The notes: generated by a model from the sequence alone, not told the origin. Shown: positions 16,783 to 58,346, numbered from the stretch's first letter. The stretch is 64,000 bases of DNA from Paenibacillaceae bacterium (GCA_040880185.1 JBBDIY010000083.1:1961-65960); one strand, 5' to 3'. Numbers and translations: made by a program.

Positions 16783-16897
16783 AGGATGATGACGTTAAAC
16801 GAATCATAGATGAGGTCATAATTATAAATTAACCGCTCAACTAATAAAGTTTCGCCTAACACCTCCCTATTCCTCGTAGGTCTGTTACGGTGTCGAC

Positions 16898-17062
16898 AGA
16901 GCAGGCAGGTTTCCTGACTATGGTTCATCGCTTCCTCGCACCTTCCCATTCATAACGAACAGTGGTTTATACGCGGGTTAGCTCCCCATTCACAGTGGCG
17001 GGACCGTGTCGGTATTGCACCGAACTTCCCTATTAAGCCGACGAGATCGGCACCATGCTCTC
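16898..17062 (-). ncRNA. Cobalamin riboswitch
   Basis: Minus strand AATAGGGAAGTTCGGTGCAATACCGACACGGTCCCGCCACTGTG...CCACTG...GGGAAGG...AGTCAGGAAACCTGCC (B12 box). Confidence 0.95.
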
Positions 17063-17257
17063 AACAAATATGCAATTATAATTGCTTAACTACCAAAAAT
17101 ACTATCACGTAAGCGCCCAGACTGTCTACTTTTTTCCCTGATTTGCAGGCTCCATGCATCTAAAAGGCTATGATAAATTTTCATAGCCTGTGACCGGGAC
17201 GGGTCATGAATGTTTTTGTTATATGTCTGGAACCGTAAAAACCATTTTAAGTTTTTA

Positions 17258-18196: not shown

Positions 18197-19300
18197 ATGA
18201 TACCATTTTACAAAAGATATTGGAAAACCGCATTCGATATTGGCCTGATCGTATTGACCGTGTTCCTCATTATGTGGACGTTCAGCTTCCTCTATAGGAT
18301 TGCCACACCGATATTCCTTTCCTTCGTCATTTACTGGATGATTGAACCATTTGCCCGTTTCCTACATAAACGTAGAATGAAAAAATCACTCGCCACAGCA
18401 ATCTCCATGCTCTTGTTTATTATCGTGATCCTAAGTCTGATTGCAGGTGCTGCTCTTATCTTCATTGCACAGATTACGAATCTCGTTGATAAGCTTCCCG
18501 AGTATACCAAGATCGTTCAAGAACAGATCGTCTTACAAACCGACTACCTGACCAGTAAGTTCGATGCGCTGCCCGACGATTTATCCGCTAAAGTTACAGA
18601 ATTGGGTGGCACTATAGCTAGAAAGACAACCTTCGTTATCGGCTGGTTGCTTGCTCATCTGCTCTCCATGCTCAGCTCACTATCTACGTTCGTCGTCAAT
18701 TTTATTGCGGCGATCATCTTAGCTTATTTTCTCAGTGTAGAGATTGAAACTTGGAAGAGAATTGCCAAAGAACAGACGCCTAGCACATTCAAGAAAGCAG
18801 GTGCATTCCTTAGAGATAACGTGTTAACCGGCATTTCCGGCTATCTTAAAGCTCAGCTCAAGCTAATTACACTCACTTTTACACTCGTATTCATTTCACT
18901 TCTAGCACTCGGCATTAATAATGCCTTTTCCGTTTCTTTATTGGCCGCTGCCGTAGATGTGATTCCCTTACTGGGTGTTACGGCTATATTCATTCCTTGG
19001 ATTGTCTACTTATTTATAGTAGGCCAAACCACATTAGCAATCTGGCTAACCGTTGTGCTGGTCGTAATTTTACTCGTTAGACAAATCCTTGAGCCTAAGC
19101 TAGTCGGAGATTCACTCGGTGTTTCCGCATTTACAATGCTCTCGTTCATGATTATATCCTTATCCTTGTTCGGCGTTGCAGGACTCATTCTGTCACCCAT
19201 CCTCATTATTCTGATTAAATCGCTGAATGATCAAGGGTATTTCAAACGATGGATTCGTAGGCCAGCCGATGAATACGATTCTTCACATTCAATTAAGTAA
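18197..19300 (+). CDS. ytvI: Sporulation integral membrane protein YtvI (AI-2E family)
   Basis: GYLKAQ, D.IPLLG..FIPW, RQILEPK..G.SLG motifs. Confidence 0.85.
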   Translation: MIPFYKRYWKTAFDIGLIVLTVFLIMWTFSFLYRIATPIFLSFVIYWMIEPFARFLHKRRMKKSLATAISMLLFIIVILSLIAGAALIFIAQITNLVDKLPEYTKIVQEQIVLQTDYLTSKFDALPDDLSAKVTELGGTIARKTTFVIGWLLAHLLSMLSSLSTFVVNFIAAIILAYFLSVEIETWKRIAKEQTPSTFKKAGAFLRDNVLTGISGYLKAQLKLITLTFTLVFISLLALGINNAFSVSLLAAAVDVIPLLGVTAIFIPWIVYLFIVGQTTLAIWLTVVLVVILLVRQILEPKLVGDSLGVSAFTMLSFMIISLSLFGVAGLILSPILIILIKSLNDQGYFKRWIRRPADEYDSSHSIK

Positions 19301-19505
19301 TGAGGTCGTGCTCGGTACAGCAGCGTGCTTGAAGCTACTATGGCATGATTGCTTGGGCAGAATCGCTGCTCTCATTGCCTTTATATGCTGTCTAGCCGTT
19401 CTGCCCTTCGTTGCTGCATACATTATTATTCCTATTGTGGTGACAATCACTTGTCTTGTTTATTTGCGAATAAGCTCGCGGAAGAGTTAGGTTAGATCAG
19501 TGCTA

Positions 19506-19563
19506 TGGTTGAGTTGGTTGTGTTGCTTTGTGTTGGTTGAGTTGGTTGTGTTGGTTGTGTTGT
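19506..19563. repeat. Degenerate 9-bp G/T-rich tandem repeat (ttggttgwg)
   Basis: ggttgagttggttgtgttgctttgtgttggttgagttggttgtgttggttgtgttg. Confidence 0.75.
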
Positions 19564-19565
19564 AC

Positions 19566-19764
19566 CTAACGGTCTTTCAGTCCTTTAATAGTTAACATAA
19601 CGCCTATTTTGAGTGAAATAACGGTCTTGGAGGCCTTTACTCCCATGCTGACACTCAAATTGATCTATAATATAGAGATATTTCCTCACTTTAACGGTCT
19701 CTTAGGCCTCTATCGTGTGGAATTCCCAACAAAACTCGAGAATAAAGCCCTGGCGGACCGTTAT
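19566..19764. repeat. Array of four 23-bp imperfect inverted repeats (TAACGGYC-N-GGCCTTTA type)
   Basis: Units at 19566, 19618, 19691, 19742 (last inverted); same architecture as 48301-48499. Confidence 0.8.
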
Positions 19765-19861
19765 TGATTTGTAATGCCACCCGTACGCTTACCTAACTTA
19801 TTTAATATTATCTTACATCGGTTATCTAGCTAAGAAACGAAATTTGAAGGAGGTTAGTTGC

Positions 19862-20530
19862 ATGTGTGGACGATTTTCGTTGCGAGTTGAGATGGAGGAA
19901 TTGCTCAGCTATTATGGTCTCATACAGAGTAACTACACCTATACGCCACGCTACAACATCGCGCCGGGTCAATCGATTACAGCTCTCATAGATTCTAATA
20001 GTGGATGTAAGATGGGCCCGCTCCGCTGGGGGCTTGTACCTTCTTGGGCAACAGATGAGCGAATGGGTTATAAGATGATTAACGCGAGAGCGGAGACTTT
20101 AGCGGAGAAGCCAGCTTTCCGGCAATCCTATTCGCGAAGAAGATGTATAATTCCAGCCGACGGCTATTATGATTGGAAGAAGGACACAAAACAGCCGCAT
20201 CGAATTACGATGAATGACGAATCGATATTCTCCCTAGCCGCTCTCTATGACAATTGGGTAGCCCCAGATGGGAATAAGCTTCATTCCTGCACAATCATTA
20301 CCACCGAATCGAATGATATTTTATCGACGATTCACGATCGCATGCCAGTCATCCTGCCCAAAGAACATCATGACACCTGGTTAGATCGGAGTATTACCGA
20401 TATTACAGTGCTGCAACAGTTGTTAATTCCATTCCCGAGTAAACCGATGACCGCCTATCAGGTATCACCTATGGTCGGTAATGTGAAGAATGATGTTCCT
20501 GCATGCATAGAACCATTCATTGAACAATAA
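19862..20530 (+). CDS. SOS response-associated peptidase (SRAP/YedK/YoqW/HMCES), abasic-site cross-linking protein
   Basis: Starts MCGRF; PRYNIAP, INARAET, IHDRMP motifs. Confidence 0.93.
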   Translation: MCGRFSLRVEMEELLSYYGLIQSNYTYTPRYNIAPGQSITALIDSNSGCKMGPLRWGLVPSWATDERMGYKMINARAETLAEKPAFRQSYSRRRCIIPADGYYDWKKDTKQPHRITMNDESIFSLAALYDNWVAPDGNKLHSCTIITTESNDILSTIHDRMPVILPKEHHDTWLDRSITDITVLQQLLIPFPSKPMTAYQVSPMVGNVKNDVPACIEPFIEQ

Positions 20531-20540
20531 CCATCACTTA

Positions 20541-20667
20541 CTTTTGCTTACGATGTAGTTTTTTCGTCTGCTCGCGCATCCATCATAACCAAAAACTTAG
20601 CTTATGCTTACGATGTAGTTTTTTCGTCTGCTCGCGCATCCATCATAACCAAAAACTTTTAGGAGGA
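20541..20667 (+). repeat. Tandem 60-bp duplication of a 5'-UTR module ending in an RBS
   Basis: 20545-20598 identical to 20605-20658; ends aaaaacttttaggagga; related copy at 34596-34665. Confidence 0.9.
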
Positions 20668-48153: not shown

Positions 48154-48300
48154 ATTGTGGATTTTCCGTTTGAATTGTAATATGATCAAGTCAAGTACCA
48201 TTGCGGCTCAAGACTCAAGAGGTCGGTGGGGAAGGTTAGTTGTCGGTGGTCGGTGGTCAGTCGTCGGAGATCAGTCGTCGGACGCATGGTCCGTGGTTTG

Positions 48301-48499
48301 TTAAGGGACTTTCGGACCCTTAATAGTTAACATAACACTTACTTTTCAAGATATAACGACCTCTGAGGCCTTTATTTCAGAATCGACACCCCATTTATAG
48401 TTGATTGAGGGGATATACGTTATCTTAACGGCCCTCCAGGCCTTTAACAAGGGAAGAAATCCAGCTTTCATCGGAAATAAGGCCCTGGGAAACCGTTAT
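48301..48499. repeat. Array of four 23-bp imperfect inverted repeats, homologous to 19566-19764
   Basis: Units at 48301, 48353, 48425, 48477 (last inverted); shares ttaatagttaacataac with the 19.6 kb array. Confidence 0.8.
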
Positions 48500-48608
48500 A
48501 TAAAGGACTTGGGGCTATTTAGCCACAAAATCTTTTTATCGACCACAGTATTATTATTTTCCACTCAGTATGAGCCCGACAGGGCATCACTTTTAGGAGG
48601 TTGAATAC

Positions 48609-48995
48609 ATGGCCAAGCTATCCCCGTACATATATTCTGAGGATGCAAGACAACAAGCAGAGTTCTACGTCAAAGCACTTCGGGGCGAGATTATTAGCAT
48701 AAAAACCTATGCAGATATGCCCCATGCACCTGAGGAAATGAAGGATCAAGTCATGCATCTTGTCCTTAAAGTTGGCGAGCAGCAATTTTACTTAGCTGAC
48801 TCCAGCATGATCCAGTCAGGCAATCAGATTGATATCACACTCGAGTTCGACACCGAATCTGAAGCCATACTGACTTTCGCGGGATTGTCCGAGGGCGGAG
48901 AGGTCATTATGCCGTTCGAGAAGATGTTCCGGGGCACTATGTTCGGACGAGTTGAGGACCCATATGGCGTTCGCTGGCAGATTGCAACGGTGTAA
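48609..48995 (+). CDS. VOC/PhnB family protein
   Basis: A.EFY, VMH..L, LSEGG.V.MP, FG...DPYGV.W. Confidence 0.88.
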   Translation: MAKLSPYIYSEDARQQAEFYVKALRGEIISIKTYADMPHAPEEMKDQVMHLVLKVGEQQFYLADSSMIQSGNQIDITLEFDTESEAILTFAGLSEGGEVIMPFEKMFRGTMFGRVEDPYGVRWQIATV

Positions 48996-57866: not shown

Positions 57867-58346
57867 CTATCGATCTGAATGAGTAGATAGGGCCTTATAA
57901 GCTTTAATATAACTAAAGTGCATACCTTCATGATACAAGGTGAAATTTAAAAATTCCCGAACAGTTTCAAGATAAAGACCCGCCGATGTTGTATACGGCT
58001 TCTCTACCTTCTCATTGAGTCGATGCTCCAAAGCACTACTTACTCGCGCTTGTTGTCCACTTAATAAAGTAATTAATTCGCTTATTGATGGTGGCCCTTC
58101 TGTCCAGTTCAATGGTGATGTACCATTAGCGAATAAATCTGGGTAGTTGGCTGGTAATGTTAAAGGCATTCCTAAGAAACGAAATGCAAAATTCTCCTGA
58201 ACCACATAAATATGTCCCAAATTCCATCGAATATTGTTCCTGAAGCCGGTATGTATGGCATCTGCCACATCTTCCGTAATGTCCGCAACTGCCTTTAATG
58301 TTTGTTCCCTAACAAATTCAAGCTGTCTGAGTAGATAATCGCTCAC
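57867..58346 (-). CDS. DinB family protein
   Basis: NNIRWNLGH, F..GTSP..W, HEGMH. Confidence 0.88.
   Translation of the reverse strand: MSDYLLRQLEFVREQTLKAVADITEDVADAIHTGFRNNIRWNLGHIYVVQENFAFRFLGMPLTLPANYPDLFANGTSPLNWTEGPPSISELITLLSGQQARVSSALEHRLNEKVEKPYTTSAGLYLETVREFLNFTLYHEGMHFSYIKAYKALSTHSDR

Follow-up and report, generated by a model that had tools for sequence, protein, structure and literature searches.

The window, that is the whole 64,000-nucleotide stretch of DNA analysed here, belongs to the genome of a Paenibacillaceae bacterium (G000), a MAG whose 94 contigs add up to 3.43 Mb (42.8% G+C, ~80% complete). Two of its intergenic regions contain an array of four short imperfect palindromes, referred to below as copy A and copy B, the first located ahead of the gene for an SRAP peptidase and the second ahead of a VOC/glyoxalase gene. 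The features at these two places are the following:

19506 to 19562, plus strand: G/T-rich tandem repeat with 9-bp and 27-bp periods (TRF), directly left of copy A
19567 to 19763, plus strand: copy A, a core of ~197 bp with units at 19567, 19619, 19692 and 19743, the last inverted (nhmmer E=1.8e-50)
19764 to 19861, plus strand: copy-specific right arm of the insertion, reaching the Shine-Dalgarno site and the start of the SRAP gene (19862-20530)
48242 to 48282, plus strand: G/T-rich tandem repeat with 7-bp and 14-bp periods (TRF), left of copy B
48302 to 48498, plus strand: copy B, core with units at 48302, 48354, 48426 and 48478, the last inverted (nhmmer E=3e-57)
48572 to 48590, plus strand: hairpin GAGCCC-N4-GGGCATCAC, a few bases 5' of the Shine-Dalgarno site of the VOC/glyoxalase gene (48609-48995)

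An 87-codon ORF at 19227-19490 is the apparent tail of an amino-acid permease gene, which is full length (~1.2 kb) in the congener G002, between the AI-2E transporter and SRAP genes, and is truncated in a second congener, G003, too. Just after the SRAP gene, at 20530-20650, a 60-bp unit is repeated 2.1 times; the depth of metagenome contigs over this block is 6 to 200 times that of its flanks, and one sample lacks one unit.

The unit common to both arrays is a 21-bp core of the form TAACGGnC-N5-GnCCTTTA. The cores of array A occupy positions 19567-19587, 19619-19639, 19692-19712 and 19743-19763 (periods 52, 73 and 51) and those of array B positions 48302-48322, 48354-48374, 48426-48446 and 48478-48498 (periods 52, 72 and 52). 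Unit 4 of both arrays matches the pattern on the minus strand only and is therefore inverted. With up to three mismatches allowed, the pattern is found 16 times on the two strands of the window, against a mean of 1.03 and a largest value of 5 in 100 dinucleotide-preserving shuffles, none of which reached 16. One of the 16, at 58277, looks like a chance match. The two four-unit arrays described in the initial annotation are thus real, and their positions, periods and inverted last unit were all reproduced.

A genome-wide scan combined with an nhmmer profile identified both arrays as copies of a single element of ~197 bp, which is present in G000 as 10 full copies and 1 partial copy. The congener G002 contains two full copies and one two-unit module, and G003 contains one two-unit module, in which unit 3 and the inverted unit 4 flank their spacer. 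BLAST searches with the element against 40 relatives gave a match in G002 only. Among ~185,000 species genomes the strict exact pattern had no match outside the genus, while a looser pattern recovered two true loci, both in G002, together with one unrelated match, and no further copy. An exact-pattern scan of a metagenome collection returned two matches, neither of which fits the profile of the element. Sequence conservation runs from the outer edge of unit 1 to that of unit 4 and stops there, so the element has sharp ends, and these two units are mutually inverted and bound the 197-bp core in the manner of MITE ends. The units follow one another in the order forward, forward, forward, reverse at 52/72/52 bp; they start with TAAC or TAAG and end with TTA, and the half-sites are TAACGG[T/C/A]C and TAA[A/G]GGCC.

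Spacing and identity were compared in 12 full copies from G000 and G002, which comprise 48 units of 21 bp. Unit spacing is 52/72/52 in nine of them and is off by 1 bp in the remaining three. The corresponding spacers measure 31, 51-52 and 30-31 bp across copies (31, 52 and 30 bp in copy A) and are thus unequal within the element. Mean pairwise identity is distributed along the element in this way:

Units 1 to 4: 0.71, 0.71, 0.70 and 0.75
First spacer, with a conserved GTTAACATAAC block: 0.66
Third spacer: 0.48
Central 51-bp spacer: 0.42
Flanks (background): 0.36

Whole copies are old, 48-72% identical in pairs, and four recognisable units and their spacing are found in all 12. Because the copies form a single family, common descent is the first reason why both window arrays have equal periods. 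The initial annotation had described spacers that diverged largely while keeping their length, and had taken fully homologous spacers as a sign that equal length comes from descent only. The description is correct for the central spacer (42% against 36% in the flanks) and only in part for the outer ones, which at 66% and 48% are still homologous, in line with part of the latter condition. The central spacer has drifted essentially to background, with its length retained in all 12 copies.

One copy, on contig C1 of G000, is orthologous to a copy in G002. The two share 131 of 207 positions with no indels, while their flanks are unalignable and of unequal length, and in the neighbouring gene only 30 of 74 four-fold sites are identical, that is, these sites are saturated. 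Spacer lengths are not absolute, as shown by a strain variant of copy A in run X2, in which the central spacer is 2 bp shorter and the third 1 bp longer (52/73/51 becomes 52/71/52), indicating a tolerance of about 1-2 bp. This variant, and another from run X3 mentioned below, come from contigs of sediment metagenome DNA, the only type among the public runs listed, none of which was of RNA. The drift of the central spacer without change of length, the orthologous copy retained past saturation and the quantised spacings found across the order (see below) support the earlier suggestion that it is spacing that is under selection.

The conserved core sits within insertions of 0.4-0.5 kb, two to three times its own length, which always separate the stop codon of one gene from the Shine-Dalgarno site of the following gene. 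The upstream gene is co-directional with the element in all 10 copies that have an upstream gene on the contig; for the downstream gene the count is 9 of 11, and both full copies of G002 obey the same orientation rule. On the element strand 5 copies have a positive and 6 a negative GC skew, which means that orientation tracks transcription and not replication; the replication bias of single-strand transposons was rejected on the same counts. Except for a partial copy, which overlaps the end of a gene, the copies lie outside long ORFs. Scans for promoters and terminators in the two window intergenic regions gave nothing above shuffles. The neighbours are ordinary genes (lepA, a hemN-like gene, proA, proC, greA, guaA, the SRAP peptidase gene and the VOC-family gene), and a gene cassette or integron was ruled out because the first six of these are housekeeping genes.

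Several of these junctions are found with and without the insertion. Between pgk and tpiA there is a junction of ~10 nt in G000 and an insert of ~520 bp with the element in G002. The junctions proA-proC and aldehyde dehydrogenase-dehydratase span 0.4-0.5 kb in G000 and 10-25 nt in G002 and/or G003, and the SRAP gene begins ~370 nt after its upstream neighbour in G000 and ~20 nt after it in G002. Comparison of orthologous loci, as proposed in the initial annotation, thus yielded four junctions that carry the insertion in one species and lack it in another, and one locus filled in both. The insertions were gained or lost after the species of the genus split. No target-site duplication is readable at the filled sites of G000 or G002, since a filled site and its empty counterpart have diverged too far and the inserted DNA extends beyond the core.

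The arms of the insertions contain modules of their own. A tandem repeat is present in 7 of 10 element-bearing non-coding segments, as opposed to 53 of 439 other non-coding segments of at least 300 bp (TRF score at least 50; Fisher p=4.8e-5). These repeats are wholly different between copies; at the orthologous locus they are made of 5-mers in G000 and of a 43-bp unit in G002, and the length of the repeat beside copy A varies in the population, with a contig of run X3 skipping 37 bp (19505 to 19543). The hairpin GAGCCC-N4-GGGCATCAC lies downstream of 5 of the 11 element copies in G000. Genome-wide, it has seven instances close to a Shine-Dalgarno site, 4-10 nt before it, five of them by the element and one after a different palindrome family; its loci besides the one in the window are C1:8715, C52:30415, C68:3262, C69:65436, C77:47344 and C78:2737. 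The partial element copy on contig C68 is trailed by a block similar to that at window 20530-20650. We infer that the arms are unconstrained DNA, which collects slippage and other small modules.

The initial annotation had related the two arrays to a third one at the start of the window, which does exist with the periods given for it:

10 to 30, 72 to 92 and 124 to 144, no strand assigned: three-palindrome array of the TAnCGGAA-N5-TTCCGnTA type, with spacing 62 and 52

It is built of a different palindrome and belongs to a different repeat family, outside the 197-bp family, but has the same spacing classes. The TAnCGGAA family has a second copy on contig C30 and forms 113-bp tandem arrays on four contigs. 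The window-start array abuts an IS200/IS605 tnpA gene, and the repeat that it has in common with C30 ends exactly at the IS-side sequence. An IS110-family element has two copies in the genome (C64:27960-29763 and C68:70553-72356), both inserted in a repeated sequence, and this sequence is uninterrupted beside the palindrome array and tnpA near the window start.

Similar distances recur with other palindromes of G000. The genome contains 28 tandem-repeat loci of period 51-52 (TRF; for example C3:49613-50020, C64:53209-53828 and C46:87807-88350), plus multiples at 102, 103 and 153. Each locus combines a palindrome of 19-23 bp with locus-specific G+C-rich DNA, and several of the palindromes are unrelated. 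Many of these arrays are interrupted by N runs, and a GAGTAACT block is common to some families. A further dispersed family, with a 38-bp unit in 2-3 tandem copies per locus, accounts for 13 loci of period 38 and 3 of period 68 (C2:52815, C30:17204 and C67:2200 are examples from the whole set). In six palindrome families of G000 the neighbour distances are 50-52, 61-62 and 72-73; the odd distances 23, 57, 100 and 175 occur once each, and 101, 102, 113 and 124 are sums of two classes.

The same spacing classes are found elsewhere in the order. A pair of TAAnGGnC-N5-GnCCnTTA units at a distance of 52 bp, with at most three mismatches, is present in 13 of 401 genomes, as compared to 2 of 401 for the reversed control. 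An exact scan of the same 401 genomes with a variable gap of 46-76 bp returned only the distances 49, 50, 50, 51, 62, 62 and 62 in other genomes and 52 in the two matches of G000 itself. Perfect TAACGG-N9-CCGTTA palindromes number 66, 61, 38, 28, 23 and 16 per genome in the richest genomes (control 0-6), and one of the TAACGG-rich genomes has arrays of period 40/41. The histogram of spacings suggested in the initial annotation thus shows that like palindromes fall only at about 40, 49-52, 62 and 72 bp across the order, although spacings of 49-52 and 72-73 bp are whole helical turns only approximately. Four-unit modules occur in four other families of the order, in these genomes:

G368: 52/62/52
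G027: 50/62/50
G037: 50/62/49-50
G005: 52/62/50

They share the short-long-short layout and an overall dyad symmetry, their spacers are unrelated in sequence, and the modules of G027, G037 and G005 have no conserved neighbour genes. The outer units of the relatives in other genomes are true palindromes, while the inner stems differ between species. Records of Paenibacillus chartarius contain many copies of the unit typical of G097, and on this ground the order is placed among the Paenibacillus relatives. The element is one branch of a TAACGG-N9-CCGTTA palindrome superfamily that extends across these relatives. All the spacing classes could descend from one ancient four-unit ancestor. With one ancestral module the number of independent changes is small (62 to 72, 50 to 40, and a jitter of 50/51/52), and the evidence for phasing rests on these and on the missing intermediates.

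The module of G368 forms the interior of a 296-300-bp MITE with perfect 18-bp TIRs and 9-10-bp TSDs, present in at least six copies of 89-95% identity. Its TIRs have a different sequence and lie outside the four units. They are widespread in Firmicutes records (Cohnella, Paenibacillus, Clostridia), mostly at contig ends, and in records of Cohnella suwonensis pairs of them are 296-300 bp apart, which is the length of the G368 MITE. No long element with this TIR was found in G368, and the one interior locus inspected for a partner IS holds an alpha-amylase gene and no transposase.

The strongest competing explanation, unlikely but to be taken seriously, is that the element is a purely selfish MITE. 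In this case the units would be the transposase sites of two joined ends, each with an outer and an inner site, and the spacing would serve transposition only, with no resident role. The dyad symmetry of the modules in other genomes, the filled and empty sites next to unrelated genes and the relative with nearly identical copies, TIRs and TSDs all agree with this proposal. Against it, the TIRs of the active relative differ from the units and lie outside them, all 12 old copies retain the four units and their spacing, and the orthologous copy was kept across saturated synonymous divergence. In addition, no transposase with such ends was found in G000 and the relatives searched. An IS630/Tc1-type transposase, considered on account of the TA-bounded ends and the outer and inner sites, was rejected: PF13358 (DDE_3, IS630 type) is absent from G000, G073, G034 and G368, and the two loci found in G069 lack the palindrome. 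Among the long repeats of G000 (~80% complete) there is no autonomous IS with the ends of the element, and the search of G000 and its relatives, limited by incomplete assemblies, revealed no binding protein, transposase or autonomous partner.

A different proposal, and a rather improbable one, is that the core acts at the RNA level. It would be transcribed as part of operons, and its hairpins would act in the mRNA, for example by directing its processing, stabilising it, setting the two cistrons to different levels of expression or offering a landing site to an RNA-binding protein. This is in line with the strictly sense orientation, which follows transcription and not replication, with the location between cistrons of housekeeping operons and with the small conserved hairpin that 5 of 11 copies have immediately ahead of the Shine-Dalgarno site of the downstream gene. 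Single-sequence folds of the two window copies are also modestly better than those of shuffles (z = -2.3 and -2.5); the long-range pairings in these folds join different units in the two copies. RNAalifold, however, gives no consensus fold on either strand, with an energy of about 0. Position 4 of the stem is C·T or C·C in 37 of 48 units, and in 39 of 48 it has no standard pair, be it Watson-Crick or G·T. The variable positions 4 and 7 do not covary, being paired in 9 and 31 units as compared to 10.0 and 32.9 expected from shuffles. The inverted unit 4 would make a different hairpin as RNA, while in duplex DNA the site is the same in the opposite orientation, and spacing steps of 10 bp have no obvious meaning for RNA. 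At gathering thresholds, Rfam has no match at the arrays, and at E<=1 both arrays gave only one chance match to a plant miRNA. The only Rfam family found in the window at gathering thresholds is a cobalamin riboswitch (RF00174, 107 bits) at 16888-17072 on the minus strand, upstream of the gene for a large SLH-domain protein.

The two half-sites carry different, conserved consensus sequences. Together with the mismatch in the stem, the lack of covariation and the inverted unit 4, this favours recognition of the units as duplex DNA by a dimer, as far as sequence patterns can indicate, although a structure-specific reader that needs the mismatch would still be compatible. The true-palindrome outer units and species-specific inner stems of the relatives would also fit a single-stranded DNA or an RNA hairpin.

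Mobilisation of a classical REP/BIME by a RAYT, a Y1 HUH transposase acting on single-stranded hairpins, is very unlikely. A RAYT gene is usually single-copy, with its own REPs on either side. The units are indeed short imperfect palindromes in regularly spaced clusters, and G000 has four PF01797 (Y1) genes, one of which lies directly next to the related array at the start of the window:

C83:1282 to 1647, minus strand: tnpA, then a tnpB fragment of ~60 codons, about 320 bp before window position 1

The statement in the initial annotation that there is no RAYT in the window is therefore literally true, yet a Y1 transposase gene with a truncated tnpB lies just outside it. The best solved relatives of this tnpA are ISDra2, IS608 and the Sulfolobus TnpA; two of the other PF01797 genes are IS200-like with end hairpins of their own, and the last is cut by a contig end. 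All four genes found in this ~80% complete genome are of the IS200/IS605 type and none is flanked by units, which, together with the absence of PF01797 from four of the five genomes of the order richest in TAACGG palindromes, led to the rejection of RAYT mobilisation. The GTAG or CGTC tag is absent from the 48 units.

Least credible of all is the idea that the arrays are local operators, or a CRISPR-like array, tied to the genes beside them; it is suggested by palindromes upstream of genes and by regular repeats with differing spacers, and refuted by the genome-wide copies: the element adjoins unrelated genes at 11 loci, its spacers are homologous between loci and not unique as in a CRISPR, and they are unequal in length. 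The genome has a genuine CRISPR array, on contig C93 (866-11510), with another repeat of 32 nt and a period of 66-67 bp, unrelated to the element.

The reading preferred here, with a probability of roughly 0.6, is that the arrays are the core of a lineage-specific, non-coding and non-autonomous repeat, similar to REP/BIME or MITE elements, whose units would be phased sites for a putative protein. A REP/BIME-like non-autonomous family was the second proposal of the initial annotation, and it gains support from the ~197-bp family with its sharp ends and its filled and empty orthologous sites. The units would serve as duplex sites for a dimeric protein, and adjacent dimers would be placed 5 and 7 turns apart (6-7 across the order) on one face of the helix; that the protein binds on the same face, as the initial annotation proposed, is inferred from the spacings. 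The four sites may jointly form one wrapped or looped complex. The binder could be a transposase or recombinase that moves the element, or else a host architectural protein. The sense-only orientation might result from selection for read-through in operons, and the flanking tandem repeats would be secondary, arising in the unconstrained arms, perhaps through stalling of replication forks at the bound module. A point against this reading is that a strict sense orientation is commoner in elements acting at the RNA level.

The element can be compared with several known systems. The res sites of Tn3/gamma-delta resolvase and sopC-type centromeres consist of several pseudo-palindromic dimer sites at fixed whole-turn distances, but they are single-copy per replicon and located beside their own recombinase or partition genes, unlike the element, with at least 10 dispersed copies and no such gene nearby. 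MIRUs sit within operons, co-oriented with the flanking genes; the MIRU unit is itself tandemly repeated, with small ORFs overlapping the stop and start codons of the neighbours. MIRUs of mycobacteria are described as intergenic repeats with a unit of 40-100 bp (PMC3184786). The element resembles them in its position between co-directional genes, in their orientation, and in its variable-number tandem repeats, 51-bp minisatellites being abundant in G000; it differs in that its core is not a tandem unit.

REPs are short imperfect palindromes in mosaic clusters at regular distances, often reiterated in tandem with flanking DNA (PMC3733652, PMC2817692), with a conserved GTAG or CGTC tag on one side of the palindrome (PMC3733652) and a copy number above 100 (PMC2817692). 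The element, whose 21-bp units fall within the 20-40 bp expected of REPs, shares with the REPs and BIMEs of enterobacteria and pseudomonads the short imperfect intergenic palindromes and their regular spacing, and the two-unit module of G002 and G003 (unit 3, spacer and inverted unit 4) resembles a REPIN doublet. It differs from them in having neither the tag nor a RAYT, in its low copy number, about 45 units per genome, and in its fixed four-unit layout, strict sense orientation and conserved stem mismatches without covariation. Its units, also regularly spaced, are arranged as three forward and one reverse, as opposed to the alternating orientation in REP clusters.

MITEs such as Correia/NEMIS, RUP, ERIC and bcr1 are likewise small and non-coding, have inverted ends, show filled and empty sites and lie next to genes, and the relative in G368 is a textbook MITE with the same four-palindrome core. 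The family in the window, in contrast, has no demonstrable TSD or partner IS, its copies are old and yet keep their units and spacing, and the conserved part is the internal four-palindrome array and not the termini alone. BIMEs carry sites for host proteins, for example IHF, and Correia elements carry an IHF site (PMC3184786). By analogy, the element would work most like BIME/REPIN clusters and MITEs with host-factor sites, as Correia elements are (PMC3184786, PMC3733652, PMC2817692, PMC3116915). No account of TAACGG-type palindromes from Paenibacillus relatives turned up in a search of the openly accessible literature, and the ~200-base four-palindrome element is, as far as found, undescribed in the literature searched.

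A bolder extension of the preferred reading, speculative and doubtful as a whole, assumes a conserved protein that binds TAACGG-N9-CCGTTA cooperatively on four sites (5, 6-7 and 5 turns) to form a wrapped particle. Such a module would have been carried by several unrelated vehicles, one of them the TIR/TSD MITE, and would be retained by the host in operons as an insulator, a topological barrier or an expression divider, with minisatellites arising through fork stalling.

To our knowledge, small palindromic repeats (REP, BIME, MITE) have been well studied in proteobacteria and hardly in Firmicutes. In practical terms, the element causes breaks in MAG assemblies and drives tightly coupled genes of an operon 0.4-0.5 kb apart, as at pgk-tpiA and proA-proC. 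It is unusually informative in that the sequence between its units is at background while the distances are kept, and the short-long-short layout of four sites recurs in five families of the order, with distances that differ by about one helical turn. Many or active copies are available in cultivable species (Paenibacillus chartarius and Cohnella suwonensis), and the family makes testable the old question of whether such repeats are merely selfish or are kept as protein-binding architecture.
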